Positions 11,203 through 54,184 of a DNA stretch of 64,000 nt are shown piece by piece. The position numbers and the translations under genes were made by a program. Each line of letters begins with the position of its first letter. The stretch's first letter is position 1. Source of the DNA: an uncultured Hyphomicrobiales bacterium (GTDB lineage Bacteria > Bacteroidota > Ignavibacteria > Kapaibacteriales > UBA2268); contig CAYVTD010000003.1 in the NCBI GenBank assembly GCA_964454445.1, positions 7,300 through 71,299 on the forward strand, given 5' to 3'. The notes under the pieces were generated by a model. It saw only the letters and a program-made list of their open reading frames with translations. It searched no databases and was not told where the DNA came from.

Positions 11203-11456
11203 ATATACCTCCAATAATGAATGTTTCATAATATATGAAATGAAAATATATTCATAAACTTTATTAATGTACAAATATATTTTATATAAACAAAATTTTT
11301 TTTAAAATATTTTTAAAATGATGAAAGTATTTGTATTTATTTTCATAACTATGTAAAAAAAAATCAAATGTTTAAAATTAATGGTTTAAGACAATTATTT
11401 ATATGATTTTAATTCAATCCCCATATCTGGCTAAAACAGAAATGGTTGTTATTCTT

Positions 11457-11482
11457 AAACCTTCCGAAGGTTTTTCTCTTTC
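11457..11482 (+). terminator. Orphan perfect hairpin (AAACCTTC/CGAAGGTTT) followed by a T-rich tract. It is terminator-like, but there is no upstream plus-strand gene.
   Basis: The palindrome aaaccttccgaaggttt is followed by ttctctttc, read directly from the sequence. Confidence 0.3.
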
Positions 11483-11709
11483 AGGCTAACTTTAAAAAAA
11501 ACTTATTAATGTTATTTTTGCCATTCTAATGCCTTTTTTTCAGTTAAGTTTTTTTCTTGCTTAATAAATCTTAATTTAAGATATTAGCGGTTATTATTTC
11601 GTTTTGGACAGATGTGATGAAAAAAATCTTTATTAAAAAATTTAGTCTGTCAAAATAATTCTTTAATATTGCAAAAAATAATTGTTTTACTTTTTTTGAG
11701 ATTAATATT

Positions 11710-12021
11710 ATGGTTTTAGTCGAATTCGCAATGTTCCCAACAGACAAGGGAGAAAGCGTAAGTAAATATGTTTCTCAGGTAATTGGAGAAATTGATAAAA
11801 GCGGAATAAACTATCTGTTGACACCAATGGGCACAATCCTCGAAGGAGAATGGGAAGAAGTAATAAGTGTAATAGACCGCTGTTTTAAGATCCTCGAGCC
11901 TCAAGCCAACAGGGTTTATAGCACTATAAAAATTGATTATAGAAAGGGTGCTAATTCCCGAATGAAATCGAAAGTCGAGAAGATTGAAGGTCTGCTCGGC
12001 AAGAAAATTGCACGGACTTAA
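11710..12021 (+). CDS. MTH1187/YkoF-family (thiamine-binding-like, DUF77) small protein
   Basis: 103 aa, MVLVEFAMFPTDKGESVSKYVSQVIGEI... This matches the family's N-terminal pattern and its size. Confidence 0.65.
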   Translation: MVLVEFAMFPTDKGESVSKYVSQVIGEIDKSGINYLLTPMGTILEGEWEEVISVIDRCFKILEPQANRVYSTIKIDYRKGANSRMKSKVEKIEGLLGKKIART

Positions 12022-14540: not shown

Positions 14541-16871
14541 TTATTGGATTCTCAATCTTTGACCAACTCTAATGCGATGATCGGAAACATTTTTATTGTG
14601 GCGTTTCAGAGAGGTAATAGAAACTCCAAATTTCTGAGAAATTGAGCTAAGTGTATCGCCTTTCCTAACGGTATAATACTTAGGAGAGCTATTAGAGCTT
14701 GAGCTACCCTTTGCCGTAGTTGCTGAATAAACAACGAGTCGTGTGCCGCTGAAAACGGTGTTTCCGCTTATCTTGTCAGAATTCCACTTTTTTAGGTCGC
14801 TGGCTTTTATTCCGTATCTCGATGCGATGGTGCTGATGGTTTCGCCACTACGAACCTTGTGGATTACTTTTTTTCCAGATGGAGTACTGATAGCTACGCT
14901 TGTTCTTGATGATTGAACAACGCTTTGAAAGCTTAGATTCTGGGAGTTTGTCTGTATTTTAAGAACTTGACCAGACATAATGTTGTTTGAGCGAAGTTTG
15001 TTGTCTTTCTTAACATCTTCAATTGAAACACCATAATTGTCAGCAATCCGGGCAAGCGTTTCTCCCCGGCGAACTTTATGTCTGATAACTTTGGGTACTT
15101 CTTTTTGAGCAGCAGTAGCGACTTCTTTAGGGACTTCTATAATAGGAATTATTAATTTTGTTCCTTGGGCAACGTAGTTTGTGCTCGAAGGTATATCGTT
15201 AAGTTTTCTTAGATCTGACAATTCGACACCGTAGCTAAGGCAAATGCTGTAAAGGGTTTCATTTTCTTTTACAGTATGCTCGATGCGTTTGATGGTTGCT
15301 TGGTCAGGTAACTTTGTTTCAATTGTTTTTTTATCGATTGGAATTTGCAGGATATCGCCATAATGAAGCTTATGTTTAGAAGTTGAAATATTGTTAGCTG
15401 ACATCAGCTCGTCAATATTTACATCGTACATTTTGGCTATAGAAGGGAGCGTTTCCCGTCTGTCAACTTTATGTTGTATCCAAGGCTGTTTCTTTTCGGG
15501 AGTAAGTTTAGTAAATTCGATAGCAAATCTTGAGAATGAACCATAAGGGATTCTAAGAGTATATTCTCTTACATCAGGTGGAGTTGTTGATTTTAACAAT
15601 TCCGGATTAAGCTCTCTAAGAGCTTCTTCGCTAATACCTGCACATTCTGCAAGAGCAGAGATACTCACGGGTTCGTTGAGAGTGATTATTTCATAAATAA
15701 ACTCATCTTTGAACTTGATGGTGTCGAGTAAAAAACCATAAGCTTCTGGTTGCATAGCTATTTTGGCAGTAGCAATGTAAAGAGGGATATAATTGCGAGT
15801 TTCTTTTGGTAAGAAAGGTCTAATTTGCCAGAAATCAGGATTTTCGAGGCCACTTCTTTTAATAGCTCTTTTTACGCCACCAGCTCCGCAGTTGTAGGCA
15901 GCCAGGGCAAGGTGCCAATCTTGGAAATCTGTAAAAAGATCACGGAGATGTCGCATGGCTGCAATAGTAGCTTTTTCAGGGTCTCGTCTTTCATCGAGCC
16001 AAACAGAAGACTCAGCATTTAGATCATATCTCTCCCCTGTAGAGCGAATAAACTGCCACATACCTACTGCCTTTGCCTTTGAAAAAGCGTTTGGATTGAG
16101 AGCGCTCTCTATCATTGCCAAATAGATGATTTCTTCTGGAACGCCTTCTTGAGCTGCATAGCGTTTCATCATGGGAAACCAGCGAGTGCTGCGTTCGAGA
16201 CATTTTGTAAGAAAACGGCGGCCTCTGTCGTCTTGAGTTAGAAATGTGATGCCATTTTGAACAAATTCGTTATCGACTAAAGGAATAGTTACGTTAATGG
16301 GGCTATTTGAAAGAAGGAATTTGTTTACTGGTTCTGCTTTTAAGGGCTTTTCAGCTTGCGGCTTGACAGGTTCTTGAGAGAGTGTTATTGTTTCAACTTC
16401 TTGGAGCAGCAAGTCTCTCATCACGATGAAAGAAGATTTGTCGTCAAGATCGTCAATCGAACCAATGTATTTTTCGTAATCGGAAATTATATTTTGTGCG
16501 AGCGTTGCGAAATCATTATTATTTTCAATATCAGGATAGCTTGCCAATCTATTGAGGACATCGATAGCTTCCTTGAAGAACATAGCGGCTTTGACGGTGT
16601 CCTTTCTATCGATATAGCCAAGTGCCTTGGCATATTCGATGCGAGCTTTTCTCATAACTTGGTTGATATTATCGTCATTACTGTTTTGCTTTGGCTTGGG
16701 TTTGTCGATATCAGAGAATTCGTCGGGGTATATGGTTGCATTCTTTTTAACAGGACGGAACCCCTGGGGTGGGGGCGGCTGCTGTGATAGAGCATCTAAG
16801 TTTAAGTAAATAAAGATGCTTACGACAAGTATTATTACCCATCTTGCTCTTGATTGATTATGTGATTGCAT
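14541..16871 (-). CDS. mltD: Membrane-bound lytic murein transglycosylase D-like protein: an SLT domain plus five LysM repeats.
   Basis: SLT motif region AVGMWQFIRSTGERY. The C-terminus has five LysM-like repeats (e.g. YTVRKGDTLSSISQKFGVSITSLKRHN). A signal peptide is present. Confidence 0.8.
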   Translation of the reverse strand: MQSHNQSRARWVIILVVSIFIYLNLDALSQQPPPPQGFRPVKKNATIYPDEFSDIDKPKPKQNSNDDNINQVMRKARIEYAKALGYIDRKDTVKAAMFFKEAIDVLNRLASYPDIENNNDFATLAQNIISDYEKYIGSIDDLDDKSSFIVMRDLLLQEVETITLSQEPVKPQAEKPLKAEPVNKFLLSNSPINVTIPLVDNEFVQNGITFLTQDDRGRRFLTKCLERSTRWFPMMKRYAAQEGVPEEIIYLAMIESALNPNAFSKAKAVGMWQFIRSTGERYDLNAESSVWLDERRDPEKATIAAMRHLRDLFTDFQDWHLALAAYNCGAGGVKRAIKRSGLENPDFWQIRPFLPKETRNYIPLYIATAKIAMQPEAYGFLLDTIKFKDEFIYEIITLNEPVSISALAECAGISEEALRELNPELLKSTTPPDVREYTLRIPYGSFSRFAIEFTKLTPEKKQPWIQHKVDRRETLPSIAKMYDVNIDELMSANNISTSKHKLHYGDILQIPIDKKTIETKLPDQATIKRIEHTVKENETLYSICLSYGVELSDLRKLNDIPSSTNYVAQGTKLIIPIIEVPKEVATAAQKEVPKVIRHKVRRGETLARIADNYGVSIEDVKKDNKLRSNNIMSGQVLKIQTNSQNLSFQSVVQSSRTSVAISTPSGKKVIHKVRSGETISTIASRYGIKASDLKKWNSDKISGNTVFSGTRLVVYSATTAKGSSSSNSSPKYYTVRKGDTLSSISQKFGVSITSLKRHNKNVSDHRIRVGQRLRIQ

Positions 16872-20951: not shown

Positions 20952-21011
<60 letters not shown>

Positions 21012-21041
<30 letters not shown>

Positions 21042-29185: not shown

Positions 29186-31405
29186 ATGAAAAAGTTTCTT
29201 AAAACAACCGTTTTCATATTGATCTTTTTTTTGGCTTATTGCGATAATATCCCGGAGGAAAAGATATGGGAACTAAATGTAAATCCATTTATTGGCACTG
29301 GTTCCTGGAGCAACACTTTTCCAGGGGCGATTGCTCCTTGGGGTATGGTTTCGCTAAGCCCTCACAACACAAAGAAAAGGACTACCGGCTATCTTTTCGG
29401 CGAAAAATACATTAATGGCTTTGGGCATACGCACATTAGTGGCGCAGGTTGTGCTGACCTTGGAAGTGTCGTTATTATGCCTATGCTCGACAGAATATCT
29501 TTTAACCCAGATGAATACAAATCAACTTATGATAATGAAAATGCCGGGCCGGGTTACTATTCGTGCACACTAAAAAAGAATAAGATAAAAGCTGAAATGA
29601 GTTGCACCGAGCGTAGTGGCATTAGCAAATATATTTTTTTAAAAGGTGGCACTGCAATGATTGTCGTAGATGCCTCCCGGAGCTTGAGTTCTTTTTTGAG
29701 TGGCTCTGCTTGCATTGATAGCGACAATGAGATTTCTGGCTATAATGAATGTGGACCGTTTTGTCAAGATACCGTTAGAAGAAAAGTTTATTTTAATATA
29801 AATATTGAACCTAAGCCCGATTCCATACGTCTGTTTAAATCAGATAAGATAATTGCATCTAAAACGGTGAAAGGAAAGAATAAATTGCTCGGAGCGGCGA
29901 TTTTCTTGAAGGTTAAAGCCGCTGATTCGATTGTAATTAGAACGGGGATTTCTTACATTTCTGCAAAGAATGCAGCAATGAATTTGGCTTTTGAGCAAGG
30001 TAAGAAGTCTTTTCAAGAGATTAGAAAAGAAACTTTTGATAAATGGGAGAAATTACTATCAAGAATACAGGTGCGAGGTGGCAGTTCTGGCGAAAGGGTT
30101 AGTTTTTATACTGCATTATATCGTATGTGCCTTCATCCGAACATTATTTCAGATATAAATGGTGATTATATTAAATATGGGGGAGGCATTGGCAAGCTCG
30201 ATAGTGGTGTGCAGTATTCTGTTTTTTCACTTTGGGATACATATCGCACATTACACCCCTATCTAAGCTTGGTTTTTCCTGAAAAACAGCATGAAATGAT
30301 GCAATCATTGCTTAGAATGTATAAAGATGGCGGTTGGTTGCCAAAATGGGAGTTGGCAGGCAGGGAAACGATGATTATGGTTGGCGATCCTGCTGCGATT
30401 GTGCTAACTGATTCTTATCTGAAGGGGATAAAAAATATTGATACTCTGCTGTTGAAGGAAGCCCTCTTAAAAAACAGTAGTTTCCTTGATGGCAATGGTA
30501 AAAATTATATACGTAAAGGGCTGAAAGAATATCTTAAGTTTGGTTATATTCCCGAAGATTATAAAAAAGAGTTTGTGTGGGGTAGCGTTTGCACTTCGCT
30601 TGAATATTGCCTTGCTGATTATTGTATTTCAAGATATTTTAAAGAAACAGGCAATACGAGCCTTGCCGATGAGTATTTTTCCCGTTCTATGAATTATAAA
30701 CGACTATTTGATAAAGAAAGGGGGTTCTTCCGTCCAAAAACGAGTAAATGCAAATGGTTTGAGCCATTCGACGAGTATGCAACTTGTTGCAGTTTTGGGG
30801 GCAGTGGCTCTGGCGGTCCCGGTTTTGTCGAGGGTAATGCTTATAATTACAATTTTTTTGTCCCTTATGATATTCACAATATTATTAAATTAATGGGTGA
30901 AAACAGGTTTTTTCAACGGCTCGATTATATAATAGATGAGCAATATTCACTTTGGAACGAACACTCAATGGACTATCCCTATCTTTATGCTTTATTAGAT
31001 AAGAGTATAAGTACCAAATCAATTATTAATAATGAGAAAAAGACACAAAGAATAATTAGGGAGCTATTAAAAAAGAACTTCAAGAACAACCCGAAAGGTT
31101 TTCCCGGTCACGACGATACCGGTACGATGTCCGCATTTTATTTTTTTTCGGCAATAGGCATCTATCCTTATTGCCCTGCGAGTAACGAATACATTATTGG
31201 TTGCCCTCTTTTCGATAAAATCACCATCAGCTCGGATACTAATTATTATCCTTCTGATAAATTAATTATAAGCTCGGAAATGAATACATCTGAATCGTAT
31301 TATATCAAGCGGAAATATATAAACGGCAAGCAGTTTGATGGGAATATGGTAAGCCACAAAGTATTGACTGGGGGGAATGAGTTAAGGTTTGAGATGGGGA
31401 AGTAG
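29186..31405 (+). CDS. Glycoside hydrolase family 92 (alpha-mannosidase-like)
   Basis: N-terminal VNPFIGTGSWSNTFPGAIAPWGMVSLSP matches the GH92 signature VNPFIGTGG...FPGA..PFGMVQLSP. Signal peptide. Length 739 aa. Confidence 0.8.
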   Translation: MKKFLKTTVFILIFFLAYCDNIPEEKIWELNVNPFIGTGSWSNTFPGAIAPWGMVSLSPHNTKKRTTGYLFGEKYINGFGHTHISGAGCADLGSVVIMPMLDRISFNPDEYKSTYDNENAGPGYYSCTLKKNKIKAEMSCTERSGISKYIFLKGGTAMIVVDASRSLSSFLSGSACIDSDNEISGYNECGPFCQDTVRRKVYFNINIEPKPDSIRLFKSDKIIASKTVKGKNKLLGAAIFLKVKAADSIVIRTGISYISAKNAAMNLAFEQGKKSFQEIRKETFDKWEKLLSRIQVRGGSSGERVSFYTALYRMCLHPNIISDINGDYIKYGGGIGKLDSGVQYSVFSLWDTYRTLHPYLSLVFPEKQHEMMQSLLRMYKDGGWLPKWELAGRETMIMVGDPAAIVLTDSYLKGIKNIDTLLLKEALLKNSSFLDGNGKNYIRKGLKEYLKFGYIPEDYKKEFVWGSVCTSLEYCLADYCISRYFKETGNTSLADEYFSRSMNYKRLFDKERGFFRPKTSKCKWFEPFDEYATCCSFGGSGSGGPGFVEGNAYNYNFFVPYDIHNIIKLMGENRFFQRLDYIIDEQYSLWNEHSMDYPYLYALLDKSISTKSIINNEKKTQRIIRELLKKNFKNNPKGFPGHDDTGTMSAFYFFSAIGIYPYCPASNEYIIGCPLFDKITISSDTNYYPSDKLIISSEMNTSESYYIKRKYINGKQFDGNMVSHKVLTGGNELRFEMGK

Positions 31406-31452
31406 GTATCCCCCCAACCCCCCTTGCAAGCAAGGGGGGCTTTTTAATTAGC
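31406..31452 (+). repeat. Left terminal inverted-repeat element (GGTATCCCCCCAACCCCCCTTGCAAGCAAGGGGGGC...TTAATTAGC). Its hairpin plus T-run also serves as the GH92 terminator.
   Basis: Near-identical to the reverse complement of 34974..35018 (24 of 24 identical at the outer end). C6/G6 stem, loop TTGCAAGCAA, then CTTTTT. Confidence 0.8.
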
Positions 31453-31478
31453 TTGTCTTTAATATAATTAACAATAAA

Positions 31479-31659
31479 TCTCCCTCCCATGCTTGTAAGG
31501 GAGGGCAGGGGAGGGATAAAAAAAGACCCCCACCCATGCTTGCAAGGGAGGGCAGGGGAGGGATAAAAAAAGGCCCCCACCCATGCTTGTAAGGGAGGGC
31601 AGGGGAGGGATAAAAAAAGACTCCCTCCCATGCTTGTAAGGGAGGGCAGTGGAGGGATA
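31479..31659 (+). repeat. Tandem array of a 47-bp unit (3.85 copies). Each unit is a GC hairpin (CCCTCCC-N10-GGGAGGG), a G-quadruplex motif GGGAGGGCAGGGGAGGG, and an A7 tract.
   Basis: Units at 31479, 31526, 31573 and 31620 are 47 bp each and more than 90% identical. The minus-strand ORFs in this region encode repeated peptides and are artefacts. Confidence 0.9.
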
Positions 31660-31836
31660 CACTACGGAACATTATATTAATTAAGAATATCAGCTTTCCT
31701 GAAACAATCAAGATAGTCTGCCACAACACATTACAAAAATATACTCATTAGTAAATAATTTTTTATTAATTATGCACAAAGTTCCTTAAATTTGCCTTTT
31801 TATAGTTTAATGTAATGTAAAGTAAGGACAAAAGAA

Positions 31837-32733
31837 ATGCTGAATCAATTGATTATTAAAACGATGCCCTTAGTTCCGAAGTTTATGATCCATCAAGTAG
31901 CAAAGAAATATATTGCTGGCGATGTTTTGCAAGATGCAGTAAACAAAACTCTGGAGCTGCAGAAGGAAGGTGGCTGGTCAACTATCGATGTGCTTGGTGA
32001 GTTTGTTGATAACAAAGAGCGTGCTCTCCACGAAAAGGCGATGAGTTCGAAAGTGCTTGATGCAATTAATGATAATAAACTTCACTCGTATCTTTCCATA
32101 AAGCCGACATCGCTCGGACTGGGTATTGATGTAAAATTTTGCTATCTTAATATCAAGGAATTGCTCCAAAAGTCGAGGGAATTTGGCTTGAATGTGTGCA
32201 TAGATATGGAAAATTCGCCCTATACAGACAAAACTATCGATCTATATCGGCGTTTTCGCGACGAGGGTTTCGACAATGTTAGTATTGTAATCCAAGCGTA
32301 TATGCGGCGGAGCTATAAGGATATCGAATCTTTGTTGTCATACAAGCCATCAATACGTCTGTGCAAGGGCATTTACAAAGAAGCTCCCGAAATAGCATAC
32401 CAAGGAAAACAGGAAGTTCGCGATAATTACAAGAAATTATTTGAGTTGATTGTCGAGAATAAAATGTATATTGGCATAGCAACTCACGACGAAGAGCTGA
32501 TAAATTATGCTGAGGAGCGGATTAAAAGCTTAGGAATGAAGAAGGAAGAATACGAGTTTCAAATGTTGCTTGGCGTCAGGGAAGATAGAAGAAGCGAGCT
32601 TTTGCGCCAAGGGCATCATTTGCGGGTTTATGTGCCTTTTGGGGTCGATTGGTATGGCTACTCTACTCGTCGATTAAAAGAGAATCCACAAATTGCAGGA
32701 CATATTTTCAAAGCAATTTTTACGAATAAATAA
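31837..32733 (+). CDS. Proline dehydrogenase (monofunctional PRODH)
   Basis: 298 aa. TIM-barrel PRODH pattern (...IDVLGEFV..., RLCKGIY, YVPFG..WYGY). Confidence 0.75.
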   Translation: MLNQLIIKTMPLVPKFMIHQVAKKYIAGDVLQDAVNKTLELQKEGGWSTIDVLGEFVDNKERALHEKAMSSKVLDAINDNKLHSYLSIKPTSLGLGIDVKFCYLNIKELLQKSREFGLNVCIDMENSPYTDKTIDLYRRFRDEGFDNVSIVIQAYMRRSYKDIESLLSYKPSIRLCKGIYKEAPEIAYQGKQEVRDNYKKLFELIVENKMYIGIATHDEELINYAEERIKSLGMKKEEYEFQMLLGVREDRRSELLRQGHHLRVYVPFGVDWYGYSTRRLKENPQIAGHIFKAIFTNK

Positions 32734-32779
32734 GATTTTGATATTAAATAAGTTTTTTTTTAAATTAAGGAATAAAATA

Positions 32780-33124
32780 ATGGAAAAAATCAAGTTCACG
32801 GACAAGGGGAATTATGTAATTATGCATCTCGAGGGAAGTGTGGTATTTTTTGACAAAGATTTGAGTGAACTAAGGGCAAAAGTGAAAGAAATAGCAGAAG
32901 CAGGCAAGCATCTGCTAATTGATTTTATTTATGCTGAGTATATTGACTCATTTTTCCAAGGATTTCTCATCTATGCCAATTCGTTAATGCTAAAACAAGG
33001 GAAAAAATTAGTCCTTTATAATTACAATCACTATATAAGAGATACTTTTCGCATAACGAAGATAGACAGTATTTTAATGCTTGTTAATGACAATCTCGAA
33101 GCGTTGAAGGCTATTGGTGAATAA
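32780..33124 (+). CDS. STAS-domain protein (anti-sigma-factor antagonist-like)
   Basis: 115 aa from MEKIKF. SpoIIAA-like fold pattern with an IDS motif (IDSFFQG). Confidence 0.65.
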   Translation: MEKIKFTDKGNYVIMHLEGSVVFFDKDLSELRAKVKEIAEAGKHLLIDFIYAEYIDSFFQGFLIYANSLMLKQGKKLVLYNYNHYIRDTFRITKIDSILMLVNDNLEALKAIGE

Positions 33125-33125
33125 G

Positions 33126-34019
33126 ATGAAAAAGCTCGTTCCTGTTTTTTTATTATTGTGTCTTTTTGTTTTCAAAGGCTGCTCCGAGCAATCAAGATCA
33201 GAAGTTGATAGCAATCCTGGCAATGTTGTCATCGGTACTTTCAATGTGGAATGGCTTGGCGATGGAGTAAGAGATAGAGTGAAGCGAACTGAGAAAGACT
33301 ATAGTAACATATCTAAAATAATAAAAAAAACAGGCGCTGATATTATGGCTTTGCAAGAGGTTGAAAACTCAAAAGCTATGAAGAAACTTTTGAAATATCT
33401 TCCAGGATATAAATTTTACATAAGCAATGGTGGCAGCGCCCAAAAACTCGCTGTCGTTTATAAAAACACTGTAAAGATGGACCTGAAAGGCGATTATAAT
33501 CCCTTAATTGTAAAAAAGAGAGCAACACGGCCAGGGCTTCTTTTCGATGCCAAGAAAGGCAATTTCGATTTTAAGGTAATGGTTGTCCATTTCAAATCGA
33601 CTTCGCATTGGGATAATACGCCAGAAAAAAGGGCAATTAGCGTGGATTTGCGACGACAGCAAGCCGAGAAAGTAGCTGATTGGGTCAATTGGACATTAAA
33701 AAATAGCAAGGAAGAGGATTTGATTGTTGTCGGCGACTTCAACGACACTCCACAGCGCAAAAAAGAAGCAACGCTAACGCCAATGGAAAAAAGAGCAGGA
33801 CTTATATTCCTAACTAGAGATATGAAGAGTTGCAAGTTTAGCAGCTGGTTTGCCATTGACCATATTGCCGTAACAAAAAGTGCCTCGCTCAGGTTTACAA
33901 GCACCATGCCGCAAGTTCTCGATGTACATACCCTATTTTCAAAAGCAGAAGCCGGGAAAATCTCAGATCATTGTCCGATATATGCTGAGTTTGAAGTTAT
34001 TTCGCCTGATAATGATTAA
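33126..34019 (+). CDS. Endonuclease/exonuclease/phosphatase (EEP) family lipoprotein
   Basis: Lipobox LFVFKGC. EEP motifs GTFNVEW, LQEVEN, VVGDFNDTP and DHCPIYAEF. Confidence 0.75.
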   Translation: MKKLVPVFLLLCLFVFKGCSEQSRSEVDSNPGNVVIGTFNVEWLGDGVRDRVKRTEKDYSNISKIIKKTGADIMALQEVENSKAMKKLLKYLPGYKFYISNGGSAQKLAVVYKNTVKMDLKGDYNPLIVKKRATRPGLLFDAKKGNFDFKVMVVHFKSTSHWDNTPEKRAISVDLRRQQAEKVADWVNWTLKNSKEEDLIVVGDFNDTPQRKKEATLTPMEKRAGLIFLTRDMKSCKFSSWFAIDHIAVTKSASLRFTSTMPQVLDVHTLFSKAEAGKISDHCPIYAEFEVISPDND

Positions 34020-34121
34020 GGTTATTTCATCTGTCAAAGAAATAGTTTTGTCATTTTATTTTTTATGATTAATTTTAAAATTATTCAAAATCATATTAAA
34101 AAAAAGTTAAAGGAAAAAAAG

Positions 34122-34487
34122 ATGAAAGTGACAAACCAAAAGCCAGAATTTGAAGTAATCAAGAATGATGGTTATTCGACAGTTAATCTGAAAGGCACTT
34201 TTACCCGCAATGAGAAAGAGAATGAAGAATTAAGAGCAGTATTTCACAAACTTGCCAAAGAGGGAGAGAAAAAAATATTGCTGAGTTTCGCTGATGTAGC
34301 TTATATTGATTCTTCTTTTGTCGGTATTGTTTTATCTTGCAATTCTATTATTAGGAATTCGGGTGGAAAACTGGTAATATTTAATACTCCAGAATATATT
34401 CAATATATTATTAAAATTGCCAATTTAAGCACTGTAATGGACGTTTGCGAAACAGAAGCTCAAGCACTCGAAGTCCTAAAAGTATAA
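34122..34487 (+). CDS. STAS-domain protein (anti-sigma-factor antagonist-like), the second paralogue
   Basis: 121 aa from MKVTNQ. The DSS motif in ...VAYIDSSFVGIVLS is typical of the phosphorylatable serine region. Confidence 0.65.
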   Translation: MKVTNQKPEFEVIKNDGYSTVNLKGTFTRNEKENEELRAVFHKLAKEGEKKILLSFADVAYIDSSFVGIVLSCNSIIRNSGGKLVIFNTPEYIQYIIKIANLSTVMDVCETEAQALEVLKV

Positions 34488-34542
34488 AAGAACAGACAAA
34501 ATAGTTGATTATATTAAAATAATAAAAATAAGGAGTTACCAA

Positions 34543-34779
34543 ATGCCAGAACCCAAAATAGCACAAAAAGCCCCTTATGAAGTGGATTTAGAACCAGGGC
34601 TATATTGGTGGTGCGCCTGTGGCGAATCAAAAAACCAACCTTTTTGTGATGGTAGTCATGTCGGAACGGAATTCTTGCCGAAAGAATTTAGAATAACAGA
34701 AGAAAAAAAGTATTGGCTTTGCGGTTGCAAAAGAACCAAGAACGCGCCATATTGTGACGGAACGCATAATAAATTATAA
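34543..34779 (+). CDS. CDGSH iron-sulfur domain protein (two CDGSH motifs)
   Basis: Two motifs, CACGESKNQPFCDGSH and CGCKRTKNAPYCDGTH. A Shine-Dalgarno site AAGGAG lies upstream. Confidence 0.8.
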   Translation: MPEPKIAQKAPYEVDLEPGLYWWCACGESKNQPFCDGSHVGTEFLPKEFRITEEKKYWLCGCKRTKNAPYCDGTHNKL

Positions 34780-34781
34780 TG

Positions 34782-34934
34782 ATCCCTCCCCAGCCCTCCC
34801 TTGCAAGCAAGGGAGGGAGCTATAAATTGAACCGAGTTTGAGAGCAAGTGAGGGAGCTATAAATTGAACCGGGTAAGAGAGCAAGGGAGGGAGCTATAAA
34901 TTGAACCGGGTAAGAGAGCAAGTGAGGGAGGGAG
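34782..34934 (+). repeat. Right-hand repeat array: one inverted copy of the 47-bp unit (34782..34820), then three 37-bp tandem units (CTATAAATTGAACCGGGTAAGAGAGCAAG(G/T)GAGGGAG).
   Basis: The reverse complement of 34782..34820 aligns to the left-array unit (GCTCCCTCCCTTGCTTGCAAGGGAGGGCTGGGGAGGGAT vs ACTCCCTCCCATGCTTGTAAGGGAGGGCAGGGGAGGGAT). 37-bp units start at 34820, 34857 and 34894. Confidence 0.85.
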
Positions 34935-34973
34935 TAGGATTGCAAGCCGAGCTTGCAAGCAGTTGAGTGAAAG

Positions 34974-35018
34974 TTTTAATTAGCCCTTCTTGCATGCAAG
35001 GGGGGTTGGGGGGATACC
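34974..35018 (-). repeat. Right terminal inverted-repeat element, the partner of 31406..31452
   Basis: Reverse complement GGTATCCCCCCAACCCCCCTTGCATGCAAGAAGGGCTAATTAAAA, compared with left GGTATCCCCCCAACCCCCCTTGCAAGCAAGGGGGGCTTTTTAATTA. Confidence 0.8.
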
Positions 35019-35061
35019 AAAAGGGTTTTATCAGTTTCTTATATAAAACCGGCAAAGAATT

Positions 35062-35727
35062 ATGGCAATAGAAAACAAATTACAAATGGACGTAATTCTC
35101 GCTGACGACCACGAGGTCGTTAGAGCCGGTTTAAGGCGTCTGCTTTCCATCGACAAGTCGATTAATATTTTGGGTGAAGCTGCCAATGGAGAAGATGCTA
35201 TCGAGCTAGTAAGACTATACAAACCTCATCTAGCATTGCTCGATATTCTTATGCCCAAGATGAACGGTATCGAAGCCACAAAGAGAATAAAATCGGAGTT
35301 TAAAGATGTTCTAGTTGTTATGCTTACAGCATTCGAAGACTTCAACCATATTGAAAAGGCGCTAGCGGCTGGTGCTGATGGTTATCTTTCAAAAGATATT
35401 GCTGCGAAAGAACTTGTCTCGGCTATTCATAAGGCTAGCTTGGGCGAGAGAGTTTTCAGCAAATCAGTTCTTAGTTTGCTCCAAAGAAAATTTAAATCTG
35501 GCGACAGCGAAGAGGATCCTAATGTCATAACCATTTCAAAACGCGAACAAGAGATACTTAATCAGGTTGCTCTTGGAAAAACAAGTGAGGAAATAGCTGA
35601 TTTTCTAAATATCAGCACCCGAACTGTCCACAGCCATAGGGCTAATATAATGGAAAAACTTGGGATAAAGAACACTGCTGGCTTGGTCCGTTATGCCATC
35701 TTCAATGCCGAAGACTTAAAGAAATAA
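35062..35727 (+). CDS. Two-component response regulator, NarL/LuxR family (REC + HTH)
   Basis: REC domain with phospho-acceptor Asp (LLDILMP). C-terminal LuxR HTH ([44 protein letters not shown]). Confidence 0.85.
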   Translation: [221 protein letters not shown]

Positions 35728-40960: not shown

Positions 40961-41042
40961 GCGGACGTGGCGGAATTGGCAGACGCGCCAGACTTAGGAT
41001 CTGGTGGGGCGACCCGTGGGAGTTCGAGTCTCCCCGTCCGCA
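40961..41042 (+). tRNA. tRNA-Leu (anticodon UAG)
   Basis: Acceptor GCGGACG/CGTCCGC. Anticodon stem CCAGA/TCTGG with loop ct-TAG-ga. Long variable arm. T-arm GGTTCGAGTCC. Confidence 0.85.
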
Positions 41043-46153: not shown

Positions 46154-46561
46154 TTAGTTAGTCTTTTTAAATGCTGATATCAGGAATGAAGTAAAAGAGA
46201 GGTTTTGCTCCAATTCCATTTTCTTTTTCTCATCGCTAAGCATTTGTTTGGCAAAGTCGTGGCTAAGAGCTTTATTTTCTTCGATAGATATTGTTTCGTT
46301 GAAAGTAGGATCTTCTGTGAGGTCTGAGATAAGGTTGATATTGTGGTCGGTTGCACCGACAAGCAAAGTCTTTTCGTCTGCTTTTATAATATAAAGATGC
46401 GTTTTTGGCTGCAAGCTTATTCTGGATAGTATCTTGAGTTCCAAGCCGCTGTTAGAGACATTTTTTTTGATTACGAGGCGTTTTACTAAATAAAGGCTTA
46501 ATGCAATAACTGCAACGGCTATACCTAATGTGAAAAATGCTTTGAACATTGTATCATCCAT
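46154..46561 (-). CDS. fliO: Flagellar biosynthesis protein FliO-like
   Basis: Single N-terminal TM helix followed by LKILSRISLQPKTHLYIIKADEKTLLVGATD (the FliO motif). It lies downstream of fliN. Confidence 0.55.
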   Translation of the reverse strand: MDDTMFKAFFTLGIAVAVIALSLYLVKRLVIKKNVSNSGLELKILSRISLQPKTHLYIIKADEKTLLVGATDHNINLISDLTEDPTFNETISIEENKALSHDFAKQMLSDEKKKMELEQNLSFTSFLISAFKKTN

Positions 46562-46600
46562 GATACGAATTACTCCTGTGAATGAGAAAAAACAATATAA

Positions 46601-47035
46601 CTATCTTTTAACAGAGCGCAAGCGGTCGGTAGGATCAACCAGCGTTGTAATACGAATACCGAAATGCTTGTCGATGACAACGACTTCGCCTTCAGCCACT
46701 TTCTTTCCATTAATCAACACATCGACTGGCTCGCTAACGAGTTTTTCAAATTCGATAACAGATCCTCTGCCAAGCCGGAGGATTTCGCGAATAAGCATGT
46801 TTGTCCGCCCGAGTTCGATGGAAACAGGCAATTGTAAGTCGTAAAGAAGCTCGAGTTTAGGATCTAAAGGTGAATAAATAGTGCTATCACTAGGAAAATC
46901 CAAGTCAGGAAATTTATCTTTTTTTCCAGCATCTTTACTTTTTTCCGATTCTTGTTGCTCTGCTTGTTCATCATCTAGATCAGCGAGGTTACCTGTATTA
47001 ATAAGAGCATCGATTTCGTCTTGAGACATAGTCAT
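46601..47035 (-). CDS. fliN: Flagellar motor switch protein FliN
   Basis: The SpoA domain LPVSIELGRTNMLIREILRLGRGSVIEFEKLVSEPVDVLINGKKVAEGEVVVIDKHFGIRIT is nearly collinear with E. coli FliN. Confidence 0.85.
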   Translation of the reverse strand: MTMSQDEIDALINTGNLADLDDEQAEQQESEKSKDAGKKDKFPDLDFPSDSTIYSPLDPKLELLYDLQLPVSIELGRTNMLIREILRLGRGSVIEFEKLVSEPVDVLINGKKVAEGEVVVIDKHFGIRITTLVDPTDRLRSVKR

Positions 47036-47038
47036 ATA

Positions 47039-48070
47039 TTATTCCTCCTCTTTGAATGAAATATCTTGATCTACGAGGTCATCTTCGGTCAGTTGGCGGG
47101 TAATCCTAACAGCCTTTTTTCCTTCGACGCTGCCAGGTCGAGCGGCGAGCTTGCGTTTTCTTCCGATAAAGACTTCGATTTCTTGATTTATTCTTTTATC
47201 GAGCTTAATCACATCGCCTGACTGGAGTTGCAATAGCTCTCGAACTGTAATGCTGGCACTGCCAAGTTCAGCTTTGACAGGCAGATAGGTTGTTGACATT
47301 TGTTGTTTCATTACCTGCATATTCTCGAGTTGCCGTTTCGGAGACGTTCTGCCAATGGTTGCAGTAACTTGCTGCCGGTTCAAGCGGGCTAGAACTTCTT
47401 CGAGAGCAAAAGTAGGGAAGCATAGATTCATCAAATATGAATGTACTCCAATATTTACGTCGAAAGAAACTACAACAACAATTTCCGAAGATGGTGCTAT
47501 TTGTACAAAATCTGCCTCCATTTCGAGACGCTGATATTTAAAGTGCAAATCGGCAATGGACTGCCATGAGTTACGCAAATCGGAAAGACAATGCTCGATA
47601 AGCCCGCGAATGACTGCTTGCTCAATCGGAGTTATAGACCTCGTTTTGGCTTGCGTTTCGGCGCTACCACCGAGCAAGCGCTCGACGATGGTTAATGCCA
47701 ATTGGGGGCTAACTTCTAAAATACCGCTTCCGTCGGTGCCTTCTATATCAAAGACATACAAGCAGCTCGGATTTGCTACAGACAATATGAATTCTGAATA
47801 AAACAACTGGTCAACTGATGTTACAGATATGGACACTATAGTTTGCAATTTCGAAACGAGATAATAGCTAAAGACCTCTGCAAAGCTCTCGTGAACGGTT
47901 TGCAAAGTTCTTACCTGATTCTTGGAAATTCGGTTAGGACGGCGAAAATCGTAGCTTGAAATGTCGCCTTTGTCGATTCTGCCACTTAGAACATCATCGA
48001 CATCCATCGAACCTGAAGTCATTTCCGAGAGCAGGTTGTCTATTTCGTTTTGCGATAGTACCTCAGCCAT
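47039..48070 (-). CDS. fliM: Flagellar motor switch protein FliM
   Basis: N-terminal LSQNEIDNLL CheY-binding motif and a FliM middle domain. Length 343 aa. Confidence 0.85.
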   Translation of the reverse strand: MAEVLSQNEIDNLLSEMTSGSMDVDDVLSGRIDKGDISSYDFRRPNRISKNQVRTLQTVHESFAEVFSYYLVSKLQTIVSISVTSVDQLFYSEFILSVANPSCLYVFDIEGTDGSGILEVSPQLALTIVERLLGGSAETQAKTRSITPIEQAVIRGLIEHCLSDLRNSWQSIADLHFKYQRLEMEADFVQIAPSSEIVVVVSFDVNIGVHSYLMNLCFPTFALEEVLARLNRQQVTATIGRTSPKRQLENMQVMKQQMSTTYLPVKAELGSASITVRELLQLQSGDVIKLDKRINQEIEVFIGRKRKLAARPGSVEGKKAVRITRQLTEDDLVDQDISFKEEE

Positions 48071-48078
48071 TGTTTCTT

Positions 48079-48726
48079 TTATTGGATTATTATTTCTTGT
48101 AAAATCACATCTTTCAGCAGCATTTTCCCTTGGCGGAAAATAGGTTTAAGTTCTTTTTTAAATACATTGGGCAGCGAATCCTGTTGCGATTTTATCTGCT
48201 CGGCAGTATATTTGCCAAGTACCATATTAACGCCGCCTCTGATACGTGCAATTATTGTTGGCGAAAGGGCAGCTGCACCTCCTTCCTCTCCACTCTCTTT
48301 TTCACCGGGCTTGGTCAAATAAATCAAGCCTAGATTGATGACCACGAAGCGGTCGGTCGAGCCACTCGGATTGGTGGTTATCCTTCCGGTTTCGACAAAA
48401 TGAGTGTTTTCATCTTTTTGAAAGAAAGAGACATCTTCTTCGTCCATCCAAGCATCTCTTTTCTTTTCGGCTTCTTTCGCAAGTTCCTCTTTACTCTTTT
48501 CTCCGATTGCTGTACTATCAAGGCGTCCAGCGCCGGTAAGCTGTTTTAGATCTGGAAAAACTAAGAATTTAAAAGCTAGAAATAGTATAATTACCATAAT
48601 TACAACAGTGCCTGCAATGATGCCGACGAGTTGGACAATACCTGGAATACCGGAATTGCCTTTGGGTTTTTCAGGCACTTGTTTAGGTTCTTTACTCTCT
48701 TCGGGCGCCGGTTTGTCTTTTGCCAT
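48079..48726 (-). CDS. fliL: Flagellar basal-body-associated protein FliL
   Basis: N-terminal TM helix, FVVINLG motif, and its position upstream of fliM. Confidence 0.6.
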   Translation of the reverse strand: MAKDKPAPEESKEPKQVPEKPKGNSGIPGIVQLVGIIAGTVVIMVIILFLAFKFLVFPDLKQLTGAGRLDSTAIGEKSKEELAKEAEKKRDAWMDEEDVSFFQKDENTHFVETGRITTNPSGSTDRFVVINLGLIYLTKPGEKESGEEGGAAALSPTIIARIRGGVNMVLGKYTAEQIKSQQDSLPNVFKKELKPIFRQGKMLLKDVILQEIIIQ

Positions 48727-52522: not shown

Positions 52523-53677
52523 ATGAGAACTATCGAAGCGCAGCGTTTGTCGGGCATTCCTGAATCAATTTTTACAACAATTTCCCAACTTGCTTTTCAG
52601 CATAATGCCGTCAATCTTGGTCAGGGTTTCCCTGATTTTGATGGGCCTGAATGGCTGATGCAAGCAGCTTATAGTGCTATGAAAGCAGGAAAGAATCAAT
52701 ATGCTCCCTCGAGTGGCATTTTTTCTTTAAGGAAGGAAATATGCGAAAATCAAAACAAGTATTATGGTTTGCAATGGGATAATGAAAAGAATGTTACGAT
52801 TACTTCTGGAGCTACTGAAGCTATTTATACCACAATAACAGCCCTGGTCGATGAGGGCGACGAAGTCATCATGTTCGAGCCGTTTTACGATTCCTATCAA
52901 GCAGTAGTGAAGCTTGCCGGCGGAGTCGAAAAATATGTTACATTGAAAAAGCCTGATTTCCATTTTGATTTCGACGAACTCGAAGCTTTGATTAATAAAA
53001 GAACAAAAATCATAATCATCAATACTCCCCACAACCCAAGTGGAAAGATTTTTAACAACGAAGAGCTGCAATTCATTGCGAAACTTGCAGTTAAAAACGA
53101 TTTGATTGTCGTTTCCGACGAGGTTTATGAATTTTTAACTTATGATGGTATAGAGCATCGGTCGATAGCAGAATTTCCAGAGATGATGGAAAGAACCGTT
53201 ATCATATCTTCGACAGGCAAGACTTTTAGTATGACCGGCTGGAAAATCGGTTGGGCTATCGCAAGCGAAATAATTACAGGTGCAATCAGAAAAGTCCATC
53301 AGTGGACAACGTTTGCATCGAACACACCTGCTCAACAGGCGATGGCTTTCGCACTTACACAACTCGACTCTTACATTCCTGAATTTCGGAAAATGTATCT
53401 TCAAAAGCGTGATTTGATTTATTCCAAACTTTTAGAAACCCGTTTTACTCCTTATAAACCGTATGGGAGCTATTTCATTTTGGCGGATATGCCTGAAGAT
53501 ACAAAAACTAAAGGAATTGAATTTGCCAAGGAGCTCATCGTTAATTCTGGTGTTGCCACTATTCCTGTTTCAATTTTTTATAAAAAATCAGACGAAGGCG
53601 ATACAATGATACGTTTATGTTTCGCCAAAAGTAATGATACTATTTATAAAGGAATTGACTTATTAAGAAATGTGTGA
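52523..53677 (+). CDS. PLP-dependent aminotransferase, class I/II
   Basis: SSTGKTFSMTGWKIGW lysine region. Length 384 aa. Confidence 0.8.
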   Translation: MRTIEAQRLSGIPESIFTTISQLAFQHNAVNLGQGFPDFDGPEWLMQAAYSAMKAGKNQYAPSSGIFSLRKEICENQNKYYGLQWDNEKNVTITSGATEAIYTTITALVDEGDEVIMFEPFYDSYQAVVKLAGGVEKYVTLKKPDFHFDFDELEALINKRTKIIIINTPHNPSGKIFNNEELQFIAKLAVKNDLIVVSDEVYEFLTYDGIEHRSIAEFPEMMERTVIISSTGKTFSMTGWKIGWAIASEIITGAIRKVHQWTTFASNTPAQQAMAFALTQLDSYIPEFRKMYLQKRDLIYSKLLETRFTPYKPYGSYFILADMPEDTKTKGIEFAKELIVNSGVATIPVSIFYKKSDEGDTMIRLCFAKSNDTIYKGIDLLRNV

Positions 53678-53703
53678 TGATAAAGCTGCTTAAGAATATT
53701 TAA

Positions 53704-54183: not shown

Positions 54184-54184
54184 G

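Follow-up and report, generated by a model that had tools for sequence, protein, structure and literature searches.

The 47-bp array and its sister modules

In the window (the whole 64,000-nucleotide stretch of DNA analysed here) the intergenic region between the GH92 and ProDH genes carries a tandem array, 3.8 copies of a 47-bp unit at positions 31480-31658, which is located between a terminator-like hairpin following GH92 and the start of ProDH. The preliminary description of this locus proposed tandem 47-bp units each bearing a canonical G-quadruplex (G4). Indeed, Tandem Repeats Finder returned the array at 31482-31659 with a period of 47, 3.8 copies, 93% matches, 0 indels and a score of 314; the canonical G4, however, is confined to units 1-3. 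On the + strand each unit is laid out as a C-arm, a loop, a G-arm, 2 nt and a second G-arm, and on the - strand it reads ATCCCTCCCC-NN-CCCTCCC-loop-GGGAGGG (Table 1). The 7-bp CCCTCCC/GGGAGGG hairpin ascribed to the units is perfect in unit 1, but the C arm of units 2 and 3 is CCCACCC, which places one Watson-Crick mismatch in the 7-bp stem, and the A7 tract follows units 1-3 but not unit 4.

Table 1. Positions and composition of the three-arm modules and associated repeats in the window.
Feature	Position	Strand	Composition
Array unit 1	31480..31526	+	CCCTCCC 31482-88; nominal loop ATGCTTGTAA; GGGAGGG 31499-505; CA; GGGGAGGG 31508-15; AT; A7 31518-24. A perfect 7-triplet class II motif (triplex-motif scan). 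Read on the - strand: ATCCCTCCCC-TG-CCCTCCC-loop-GGGAGGG-AGA
Array unit 2	31527..31573	+	C arm CCCCCACCC (stem mismatch); G4 motif 31546-62; then A7; - strand hairpin and T7, terminator-like
Array unit 3	31574..31620	+	C arm CCCCCACCC; G4 motif 31593-609; then A7; - strand hairpin and T7
Array unit 4	31621..31658	+	Last, truncated; CCCTCCC 31623-29; G arm 31640-46; degenerate third arm GTGGAGGG 31649-56; no A7; not a canonical G4
C6-type three-arm module	31408..31445	+	2 nt past the GH92 stop (TAG 31403-31405); ATCCCCCC 31408-15; AA; CCCCCCTTG 31418-26; loop CAAG; CAAGGGGGG 31431-39; C; TTTTT 31441-45
T-type three-arm module, opposite orientation	34782..34819	+	2 nt past the CDGSH stop (TAA 34777-79); ATCCCTCCCC 34782-91; AG; CCCTCCCTTG 34794-803; loop CAAG; CAAGGGAGGG 34808-17; AG
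Second tandem array	34806..34930	+	37 bp x 3.4; each unit a half-loop, G arm (AGCAAGGGAGGGAGC) and spacer only
Degenerate inverted C6-type module	34983..35015	+	GCCCTTCTTG; loop CATG; CAAGGGGGG; TT; GGGGGG; AT

Exact copies of GGGAGGGCAGGGGAGGG were located on the + strand at 31499, 31546 and 31593, in array units 1-3. Thus, three of the four + strand motifs previously reported within 180 bp are exact, and the fourth, GGGAGGGCAGTGGAGGG at 31640 in unit 4, differs by one mismatch that gives GTGG in the third G-tract, with loss of the canonical motif. A fifth, inverted motif had been placed at 34786..34802 on the - strand; it exists as GGGAGGGCTGGGGAGGG, although its true position is 34784-34800 and its middle loop is CT. 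Matches of the GGGAGGGCAGGGGAGGG type therefore number five, against 0.00 expected from 100 shuffles. When a canonical G4 regex (four runs of at least 3 G, loops of 1-7 nt) was applied to the 64 kb, exactly four motifs were recovered (units 1-3, with loops of 1-2-1 nt, and 34784-34800), all of them within three-arm modules, where 200 random sequences averaged 0.06. Moreover, G4Hunter (25-nt window) scored array units 1-3 at 1.68-1.72, where the threshold for a canonical G4 is at least 1.5; the - strand copy at 34784-34800 qualifies as well. By these in silico measures the G4 motif is sound. The hairpin does not lie immediately upstream of it, however: the 3' arm of the hairpin (GGGAGGG) doubles as the opening half of the G4 motif, and so hairpin and G4 are mutually exclusive.

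Two further three-arm modules are present, each beginning 2 nt past a stop codon. The module behind GH92 is terminator-like on the + strand (a 9-bp stem with 7 GC, and a T-run), with a DNA hairpin of -10.4 kcal/mol. The module behind CDGSH is 92% complementary to array unit 2, it is the one whose - strand bears the fifth G4 motif, and its DNA hairpin has an energy of -11.0 kcal/mol and a z-score of -2.65. A degenerate inverted module, 88% complementary to 31405-31447, closes the right-hand doublet; its G4Hunter score is 2.0, yet it holds no canonical G4. The modules of the window are thus two inverted doublets, each of one C6-type and one T-type member, which occupy the two intergenic regions bounding the ProDH-to-CDGSH block and are the only two three-arm loci seen in the 64 kb. 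In both C6-type members (C6-AA-C6 ... G6) the three-arm design is kept and the canonical G4 is absent by regex, which indicates that G4 capacity is not the conserved trait of the family.

Predicted folds of the array unit

Folding with ViennaRNA, including its G4 model, gave -23.2 kcal/mol for the G4 and -22.7 kcal/mol for the hairpin of unit 1, which is a tie, and -23.2 versus -17.2 kcal/mol in units 2 and 3, where the G4 is predicted to be the better fold. The DNA hairpin of unit 2 has a z-score of -0.19, no better than shuffles.

The three arms were also considered as an intrastrand triplex. The arms have the arrangement of such a motif: a run of pyrimidines is followed by the complementary purines and then by a third run that can pair antiparallel with those purines (G*G-C, A*A-T, T*A-T). 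An ITxF-like scan, in which a 7-nt perfect Watson-Crick stem and a third strand of G*G, A*A or T*A with at most one mismatch were demanded, matched units 1 and 4 on the + strand and the 34782 and 31408 modules on the - strand. The rest of the 64 kb gave no match, nor did any of 100 random sequences. Unit 1 contains 7 perfect triplets, the 34782 module up to 9, and unit 4 has one third-strand mismatch. The ITxF criteria proper call for a stem of 6-15 triplets, one mismatch only above 7 nt and loops of 1-6 nt, and those of Hoyne for perfect stems above 7 nt and loops of 0-10 nt. Loop 2 is 2-3 nt across the modules; loop 1, nominally 10 nt in the array units, is within the range of Hoyne and outside that of ITxF, and is 4 nt in the 31408 and 34782 modules, in which TTG/CAA lengthen the stem. 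As a motif, the + strand of the array unit belongs to class II (Y-R-R), and its - strand has the order Hoogsteen-Y-R.

A dispersed extragenic repeat family with variable copy number

The number of array units differs between strains: four in the window and in L012 and L013 (three assemblies that match one another at 100% identity and are perhaps not independent), two in L001 (a contig that could be a short-read collapse) and one in L007, L176, L177 and L178. The length differences between alleles are exact multiples of 47, and the flanks are 98.8-100% identical. The single-unit allele has loop SNPs of its own and so did not arise through collapse of the 4-unit allele in assembly. Copy number is therefore non-uniform, the reverse of the uniformity that the preliminary description had counted against its proposal. 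The second intergenic region, on the CDGSH side, is also rearranged between strains, and the array at 34806..34930 is altered in a ~99% identical strain (a 288-nt versus a 282-nt spacer). The ProDH-to-CDGSH block itself sits at a synteny breakpoint. In related genomes modules are found at different intergenic sites, and at one orthologous site a relative has an insertion of ~525 nt that bears a module, in place of the 1-nt spacer of the window.

Beyond these relatives, the 21-nt double C arm ATCCCTCCCC-NN-CCCTCCCTT was found in at least 120 metagenome contigs, compared with ~7 by chance (a rough estimate that assumes uniform composition). Among the matches listed, 81 of 131 continue as a loop and (AA)GGGAGGG, the NN being purine-rich, and the arms are conserved while the loops differ between lineages. 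The lineages involved are many, at 30-62% GC, and the modules occur in them as singletons, as inverted doublets, as cargo of two unrelated MITEs and in other tandem arrays (L145, 9 x 73 bp; L115, 4 x 176 bp). In 13 of 34 independent contexts the module starts -1 to +6 nt from the stop codon of unrelated housekeeping genes, and both sense copies in the window are likewise stop-adjacent. The C-rich strand is the mRNA-sense strand in most family contexts, and an RNA G4 is therefore not the common denominator of the family. Overall, this is an extragenic repeat family, dispersed among intergenic sites in relatives and recurring in many lineages, whose copies and neighbouring sequence change between near-identical strains.

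In a genome collection the hairpin core CCYCCCTTRCAAGCAWGGG gave 55 matches against an estimated ~35 by chance; L050 was the only true homologue, and most of the others came from ClpB coding sequence, from a Burkholderiales terminator or from a Dialister repeat. An association with phage was set aside, as 2.9 million viral contigs yielded 1 match for the module. Rfam 15, at gathering and permissive thresholds, returned only two tRNAs in the window; within 31300-35100 its best match was a 29-bit chance hit to a miRNA model (gathering score 85), and in 15 related loci nothing overlapped the modules. The regulatory RNA structure raised in the preliminary description has no support, either from Rfam or from the position of the array between the GH92 hairpin and the start of ProDH. 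Two further ideas were rejected: the extra C arm as a closing helix with the arm of a doublet partner, which fits about a dozen contexts while many singletons retain the extra arm, and Shine-Dalgarno or anti-SD mimicry by the arms, since a loose SD 4-mer occurs in only 11 of 44 window genes and downstream starts are 23-264 nt from the modules.

Probable kinship with BoxC/PIT elements and alternative readings

The order C-arm, loop, G-arm, NN, G-arm is the BoxC/PIT/TMECO architecture; the G-tracts of the array do not stand alone but are module arms. TMECO follows the pattern CCCTCNCCC-N3-6-GGGNGAGGG-N3-GGGNGAGGG; in vitro NMR of the E. coli element identified a triplex and ruled out a G4, no stable triplex was seen by DMS footprinting in vivo, and inverted pairs in E. 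coli always combine two sequence types (PMC4666352). TMECO loci were found by Holder et al. to be far more variable than control intergenic regions, with replication slippage or stalling proposed as the cause, and to be unlinked to mobile elements (PMC4666352). The TMECO regex has no match on either strand of the window. TMECO and the window modules share the C-rich/G-rich/G-rich arm order on one strand, homopyrimidine/homopurine and mirror-symmetric arms that are more conserved than the loops, a strictly intergenic location, inverted pairs of two sequence types (here C6-type and T-type), variation in number and neighbouring sequence between close strains, and a G-rich half that could form a three-tetrad G4. 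They differ in arm length (9 nt, CCCTCNCCC, versus 7 nt, CCCTCCC/GGGAGGG or C6/G6), in the second loop (fixed at 3 nt versus 2-3 nt), in a nominal first loop that reaches 10 nt here, and in host, TMECO being proteobacterial and the three-arm family belonging to a low-GC Kapabacteria-like host and metagenomic lineages. Head-to-tail arrays, carriage by MITEs and a strong preference for 0-6 nt past a stop codon mark the three-arm family and are unreported for TMECO ('no trend to a specific distance'). Short-loop G4s are expected to be more stable. The array's G4 loops of 1-2-1 nt are much shorter than those of TMECO, so the G4 should be more stable here and could win in the three-arm family.

We consider it probable that the array consists of four head-to-tail, ~40-nt, three-arm G/C-rich palindromic repeats with a T/A7 spacer, of the BoxC/PIT intrastrand-triplex-motif kind, and that its structure-prone single strand drives slippage or recombination. 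Triplex formation by the array units is putative, being taken from TMECO with its 9-nt arms and different loops. The GC skew is positive, and the + (G-rich) strand is therefore probably the lagging-strand template. When single-stranded it would form the hairpin, which may then capture the third arm as a reverse-Hoogsteen strand or yield to the G4. Such folded structures could stall polymerases and favour slippage or unequal recombination between units, and so might generate the 1, 2 and 4 copy states. On the - strand the hairpins of units 1-3, with their T-rich tails (AGATTTATTGTT for unit 1 and T7 for the other two), could act with the + strand hairpin and T5 behind GH92 as a two-way transcription stop between the two operons. 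The link to recombination or instability drawn in the preliminary description agrees with the published behaviour of the BoxC/PIT kind.

A somewhat unlikely alternative is that the modules are small mobile elements akin to REPs, REPINs or MITEs, which a transposase such as a RAYT or IS200/IS605-like enzyme would move in trans, and that the array is a BIME-like cluster produced by repeated insertion rather than slippage. The differing module sites in related genomes, the orthologous site at which a relative carries a module and the window none, the REPIN-like inverted doublets and the carriage in two MITEs are all in keeping with this. Moreover, the internal units have a T7 tail of their own, unlike the flank of the single-copy allele, which fits the addition of whole 47-nt modules. 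REPs, too, lie mostly downstream of genes and are often tandemly reiterated, and they reportedly occur near stop codons. REP/BIME/REPIN elements and the modules are alike as extragenic imperfect palindromes of 20-40 nt that occur as singletons, inverted dimers and tandem clusters alternating two types, with polymorphic copy number. The modules, however, have purine/pyrimidine-asymmetric arms and an extra third arm, and the unpaired GTAG or CGTC tag at the palindrome end that belongs to the REP definition is absent beside them, the flanks being (A/T)ATCCC... and ...GGGAG(C/T). No RAYT (Y1 transposase) was identified among the 20 window proteins scanned with Pfam, conserved arms with lineage-variable loops suggest selection on structure rather than the copying of a single element, and the near-absence from viral contigs and the unlinked state of TMECO also argue against mobility. 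The SDRs of heterocystous cyanobacteria are said to be structured repeats of <50 nt that are nested in MITEs and tandem repeats and conserved more in structure than in sequence, and mobility through an RNA intermediate has reportedly been proposed for them. To our knowledge a three-arm purine/pyrimidine design has not been described for SDRs, and their sequences and hosts differ from those of the three-arm family.

It is doubtful that the G4 is itself the biologically relevant structure, that is, a three-tetrad parallel G4 in each unit on the + strand (as DNA or read-through RNA) that stalls replication or transcription or initiates recombination in the manner of the Neisseria pilE G4. The rarity and short loops of the motif, its G4Hunter scores, a predicted energy that equals that of the hairpin in unit 1 and is 6 kcal/mol better in units 2 and 3 with their mismatched C arm, the shuffle-like hairpin of unit 2 and the copy-number differences between strains speak for it. 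Against it, the conserved hairpin uses the first two G-tracts as its 3' arm, the motif is lost in unit 4, the three-arm design is maintained in C6-type members and in MITE partner modules (G5-CAAA-G5) that also lack a canonical G4, the analogous TMECO favoured a triplex, and the C-rich strand is mRNA-sense in most contexts. The preliminary reading is partly supported: the short-loop motif is valid, but its G-tracts belong to a conserved three-arm palindrome, of which they form two arms, and a dedicated regulatory role of the G4 is not supported. The pilE G4 of Neisseria gonorrhoeae is an intergenic, recombination-linked motif of 16-17 nt (G3-N-G3-NN-G3/4-N-G3/4) with very short loops. It is single-copy and requires both RecA-dependent gene conversion into pilE and a dedicated promoter for an sRNA; unlike the array units, it is not known to have a complementary C arm or to form a repeat family. 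The GGGNATC heptamer repeats of Xanthomonas and Nostoc resemble the array as G4-capable intergenic tandem repeats of variable unit number, which lie close to stop codons when on the sense strand or precede ORFs when on the antisense strand (Rehm et al., 2015, PMC4692102). Their units, in contrast, are simple 7-nt sequences with one G-tract each and no hairpin partner, whereas the 47-bp unit has four tracts and a complementary C arm, and the GGGNATC loci were reported to be more stable, not less (PMC4692102).

Equally improbable is that the units are stacked intrinsic terminators of the - strand which, with the + strand terminator after GH92, insulate the GH92 and ProDH operons from each other in both directions. 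Each unit does read on the - strand as a GC hairpin followed by TCTTTTTTT, a consensus scan flagged units 2 and 3 (- strand) and the + strand hairpin 31418-31439 with CTTTTT, and the tail of the single-copy allele is also T-rich (AGGTTTATTGTT). However, no - strand gene lies rightward for ~8 kb, the nearest - strand ORF on that side having its end at 39504, and none reads into the array, a T run of at least 4 follows the hairpin in only 8 of 81 family members among the matches listed, and four tandem terminators would be superfluous for this role, and some strains have one. No promoter or terminator activity was detected for BoxC/PIT elements in E. coli (PMC4666352).

Still less probable is a reading in which the module acts first of all in RNA, at mRNA 3' ends, as an intramolecular triple helix of the pyrimidine motif whose Hoogsteen arm would be covered by the terminating ribosome, leaving the hairpin at the mRNA entry channel; DNA instability and the G4 motif would then be side effects. 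In sense orientation the module runs from a 5' Hoogsteen arm (AUCCCUCCCC) through a 2-nt turn, pyrimidine arm and loop to a 3' purine arm, and this order and polarity are exactly those required for such a helix. If this were true, translation termination could be coupled to a change of structure that shields the 3' end or alters ribosome release, and the module would be a bacterial counterpart, across several phyla, of 3'-end triple-helix stabilisers.

Finally, an assembly artefact or repetitive coding sequence is effectively refuted: mechanical - strand ORFs do cross the array (31305-31631, 31448-31729) and the gene caller of one assembly called an 87-aa product, but the identical 4-unit sequence recurs in three records with clean 1- or 2-unit alleles in five others, and a coding reading is rejected because the period of 47, not a multiple of 3, shifts the frame in every unit and the called product has no Pfam match.

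The favoured reading, repeats of the BoxC/PIT kind, re-files what appeared to be a bacterial G4 array among the little-studied BoxC/PIT intrastrand triplex motif repeats, and carries that kind into an uncultured FCB lineage and many metagenomic ones. The 1-, 2- and 4-unit alleles form a natural series at one site that is usable for the question of three-arm GC repeats and replication slippage, and the locus offers a competition between hairpin, triplex and G4 in which the G4 loops are unusually short. Stop-codon adjacency, which is unreported for the E. coli elements, would, if upheld, point to a function at mRNA 3' ends.

The 47-bp array and its three-arm units

A 431-nt spacer separating a GH92 glycosidase gene from that for proline dehydrogenase (ProDH) holds the array, and ProDH heads a co-directional block that continues with STAS, EEP-family, STAS and CDGSH genes. 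The window has a GC content of 37% and encodes T9SS-tailed proteins, and the nearest named relatives of the ProDH adjoining the array come from 'Candidatus Kapabacteria / Kapaibacterium' MAGs. NCBI MAG GCA_029562445.1 and a JGI metagenome contig from an anaerobic digester both contain identical sequence. The flagellar genes FliO, FliN and FliL (46154-48726) co-occur with T9SS-tailed proteins in this Kapabacteria-like genome.

Features of the window around the array, with the tRNA genes
Feature	Position	Strand	Composition
tRNA gene	20952-21041		
GH92 glycosidase gene	29186-31405	+	left of array
C6-type module	31408-31445	+	GH92 TAG, 2 nt, ATCCCCCC-AA-CCCCCCTTG-CAAG-CAAGGGGGG-CTTTTT
47-bp tandem repeat	31482-31659		3.8 copies, 93% matches, 0 indels (Tandem Repeats Finder)
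ProDH gene	31837-32733	+	right of array
T-type module	34782-34819	+	CDGSH TAA, 2 nt, ATCCCTCCCC-AG-CCCTCCCTTG-CAAG-CAAGGGAGGG-AG
Inverted GGGAGGGCAGGGGAGGG copy	34784-34800		middle loop CT
Second tandem array	34806-34930		37 bp x 3.4, G arm and spacer only
C6-type module, degenerate, inverted	34983-35015		
tRNA gene	40961-41042		

The 47-bp tandem repeat is real and far above chance. Exact copies of GGGAGGGCAGGGGAGGG occur at 31499, 31546 and 31593, where shuffled sequences give an expectation of none, and a copy with one mismatch (GTGG) occurs at 31640. The repeat and its G-quadruplex (G4) motifs, as put forward in the preliminary description, are therefore borne out; the canonical motif ascribed to every + strand unit holds for units 1-3, unit 4 being non-canonical, and the A7 tract is likewise confined to units 1-3. 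In units 2 and 3 the C arm of the 7-bp GC hairpin ascribed to each unit reads CCCACCC and is mismatched, and the fifth, inverted copy exists, 2 nt to the left of where it had been placed. Across all 64 kb, no canonical G4 motif occurs apart from the GGGAGGGCAGGGGAGGG copies (0.06 expected), and G4Hunter windows scoring at least 1.5 comprise only these copies, two G6-TT-G6 sites and one site at 16765. The last (16765-16790, TGGGGTGGGGGCGGCTGC) holds no canonical G4, lies within a long - strand ORF and is unrelated to the modules.

On the - strand, every array unit reads ATCCCTCCCC-TG-CCCTCCC-TTACAAGCAT-GGGAGGG-AG, followed by TCTTTTTTT. The same three-arm design recurs on the + strand directly after the stop codons of GH92 and CDGSH, so each of two intergenic regions carries an inverted doublet of one C6-type (C6/G6 arms) and one T-type (CCCTCCC/GGGAGGG arms) module. 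The two doublets bound the 3.5-kb ProDH-STAS-EEP-STAS-CDGSH block and are mutually reverse complementary (88% for 31405-31447 against 34976-35018; 92% for 31529-31564 against 34782-34817). Nearly all equally strong perfect GC-rich hairpins in the window come from this module family. The 5' arm is always homopyrimidine and the 3' arm always homopurine, and the extra arm has a sequence and polarity suited to a third strand; for the G-rich strand the pairing would be reverse-Hoogsteen G*G-C / A*A-T, for the C-rich strand Hoogsteen C+*G-C / T*A-T. A simple scan for this third-strand design matched the modules alone in the window, and nothing in random sequence.

Copy number and rearrangement between strains

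Copy number varies between strains, with 4, 2 and 1 units between flanks 98.8-100% identical. The GH92-ProDH spacer measures 431 nt with 4 units in the window and two related contigs (L012, L013; these three records possibly share data), 337 nt with 2 units, corresponding to units 1 and 4, in L001, and 290 nt with 1 unit in L007, L176 and L177; L178 also has a single unit and begins within the spacer, hence gives no length. The length differences are exact multiples of 47, and the flanks are 100% identical for the 4-unit, 99.7-99.96% for the 2-unit and 98.8-99.6% for the 1-unit form. The loop of the single-unit allele is distinct in sequence (ATGCTAGCAA), so this allele belongs to a separate strain and did not arise by collapse during assembly; such a collapse could explain the 2-unit contig. 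The CDGSH-RR spacer also differs between the same strains (282 versus 288 nt, with different internal repeats). In a ~99% identical strain (L004-L007, L009), the 37-bp array is replaced by a different arrangement.

At greater distance, L179 (ProDH 87% identical) has no module near the ProDH block, and L180 (ProDH 80% identical, same MAG as L050) has modules at other sites. In L180 an insertion of ~525 nt (11257-11793), which contains two ~240-nt composite copies, lies exactly between a STAS stop and the next start, a site that is a 1-nt spacer in the window (33122-33128) and in L179. The composite repeat, a sense module, a spacer and an inverted module, is found again at L180 1-170 and L050 3300-3900, and terminates in a recurring AAAATAAACAGATGAAAC; short ORF-like MK(H/R)(P/L)WLR... 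stretches come next. The neighbours of the ProDH block differ in L179 and L180: in L180 it follows an aminotransferase-deaminase-methylase-Tmk cluster which in the window (52523-55518) is 20 kb away, placing the module-bounded block at a synteny breakpoint. L050 and L180 (GCA_964577665.1, contigs CAZOBD010000123.1 and CAZOBD010000034.1) are titled 'uncultured Hyphomicrobiales bacterium'; with 37-39% GC, T9SS-tailed proteins and a ProDH that shares 80% identity with its Kapabacteria-like counterpart in the window, their taxonomic label or binning looks wrong.

The module family beyond the window

A metagenome query with the 21-nt double C arm (ATCCCTCCCC-NN-CCCTCCCTT) matched at least 120 contigs from samples of 30-62% GC, against a rough chance estimate of ~7 that assumes uniform composition. 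Among the matches listed, 81 of 131 continue as a short loop and (AA)GGGAGGG, mostly then AG, none of which was in the query; the 2-nt linker of such hairpin-type matches is purine-rich, a T run follows the hairpin in only 8 of the 81, and matches that lack the hairpin consist of CCCT-type low-complexity sequence. A scan of viral contigs gave one match, and Rfam contained no family covering the module in the window or related loci.

Modules were found as singletons, as inverted doublets in which the outer C arm of one module and the outer G arm of the other are able to pair, as cargo of MITEs and as tandem arrays. Two unrelated MITEs, each with its own terminal inverted repeats, contain the module; in both, a T-type module lies towards one end and an inverted one of another sequence type towards the other. 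The first (~153 nt, TIR AAGACCATTGCAAAA) belongs to an organism of 31-37% GC (L073, L092, L100, L105, L112 and others, sample Ga0272443), the second (~250 nt) to one of 52-63% GC (L058, L079, L095, L171, L175 and others, sample Ga0105047). Tandem arrays of the module that differ in period and count occur in L145 (4026-4640, 9 x 73 bp) and L115 (2262-2830, 4 x 176 bp), at orthologous loci that follow an Lnb-like membrane protein gene. The hairpin core CC(Y)CCC-TTGCAAGCAA-GGG also forms separate multi-copy repeats with different flanks in Dialister (L016, L021, L023, L031, L034, L052) and in the proteobacterial MAG MFD02840.bin.1.317 (L020, L028, L029, L033, L055).

Relation to triplex-motif repeats, folding and placement after stop codons

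As judged from its arms, the array appears to have the BoxC/PIT/TMECO architecture, and we file it as a further G/C-rich three-arm (intrastrand-triplex-type) extragenic repeat, a kind already known. The G/C-rich TMECO pattern CCCTCNCCC-N3-6-GGGNGAGGG-N3-GGGNGAGGG has 3610 copies in 262 proteobacterial genomes, and many further triplex motifs of G/C-rich type are described, from cyanobacteria among other groups (Holder et al., NAR 2015, PMC4666352). In isolation, the TMECO strand folds as a class II triplex of very high stability (Tm 70-82 C, 18 imino signals), G4 having been considered and then excluded, and in vivo DMS footprinting revealed no stable triplex; earlier BoxC/PIT work found polymerase arrest in vitro and neither promoter nor terminator activity (PMC4666352). 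TMECO is always intergenic, without a trend in gene class or distance, and forms inverted pairs at 5 of 18 loci, always type A with type B; between E. coli strains its loci vary far more than do random hairpins or intergenic regions taken as controls, and replication stalling or slippage was proposed to explain this variability (PMC4666352).

The module family shares with TMECO the arm order, the purine/pyrimidine asymmetry, a conservation stronger in the arms than in the loops, inverted pairs made of two types, and hypervariability at the locus. However, a pattern search of the window found no match to the TMECO consensus, and the family differs in its 7-nt arms, shorter second and nominally longer first loop, host range, carriage by MITEs, head-to-tail arrays and a stop-codon preference unreported for E. 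coli TMECO.

The hairpin had been described as separate from the G4 motif; in fact its 3' arm is the first half of that motif, so that the two folds are mutually alternative. In ViennaRNA with a G4 term, unit 1 is balanced (G4 -23.2, hairpin -22.7 kcal/mol), units 2 and 3 favour G4 (-23.2 versus -17.2 kcal/mol), and G4 is absent from unit 4 and the C6-type modules. As DNA, the hairpin reaches -11.4 kcal/mol in unit 1 and -7.9 in unit 4, that of unit 2 being no better than shuffles. Analogy with TMECO would favour a triplex as the dominant form, and G4 would be favoured more than in TMECO by the 1-2-1 nt loops and by the mismatches that units 2 and 3 have in their C arms. Both strands of the whole region, as RNA, fold far more stably than shuffles (z -6.0 and -6.7).

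GC skew is steadily positive across the window, which makes the G-rich + strand probably the lagging-strand template. Most likely, this strand when single-stranded would form the hairpin, which would then recruit the third arm or be displaced by G4; the folded strand would impede polymerases, and the resulting slippage or unequal exchange between units may have produced the 1/2/4 series and the neighbouring rearrangements. The G4 interpretation has partial support: it stands as a sequence property and in its link to instability, but not as organising principle or regulatory RNA. Mobility of modules, REP/REPIN-like or through MITEs, is a live and non-exclusive explanation for their arrival at new sites; the modules lack a GTAG or CGTC tag and no Y1 transposase was present among the window proteins scanned, which argues against REP/BIME membership. 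Going by its shape alone, the array could serve as a - strand terminator stack, but a transcript for it to terminate is not apparent.

The most interesting remaining observation is a preference, seen throughout the family, for positions 0-6 nt past stop codons. Among the matches listed, 34 independent contexts were counted, leaving out MITE copies and array-internal units, and the distance was taken from the stop of any ORF with 80 or more codons to the first C arm. In 13 of the 34, which come from unrelated lineages, a stop codon lies -1 to +6 nt before that arm (L062, L067, L081, L085, L111, L115, L125, L132, L139, L140, L141, L145, L160), and no converging ORF ends so close on the other side (nearest 8-55 nt). 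The upstream genes are unrelated housekeeping genes, e.g. RsgA, LeuRS, IleRS, RuvX, ABC ATPase and glycosyltransferase. Both sense-orientation copies in the window are stop-adjacent too (31403-31410, 34777-34783), and the array, which lies beyond the GH92 hairpin and ahead of the ProDH start, has the opposite orientation. The stop-adjacent orientation would allow a pyrimidine-motif RNA triple helix.
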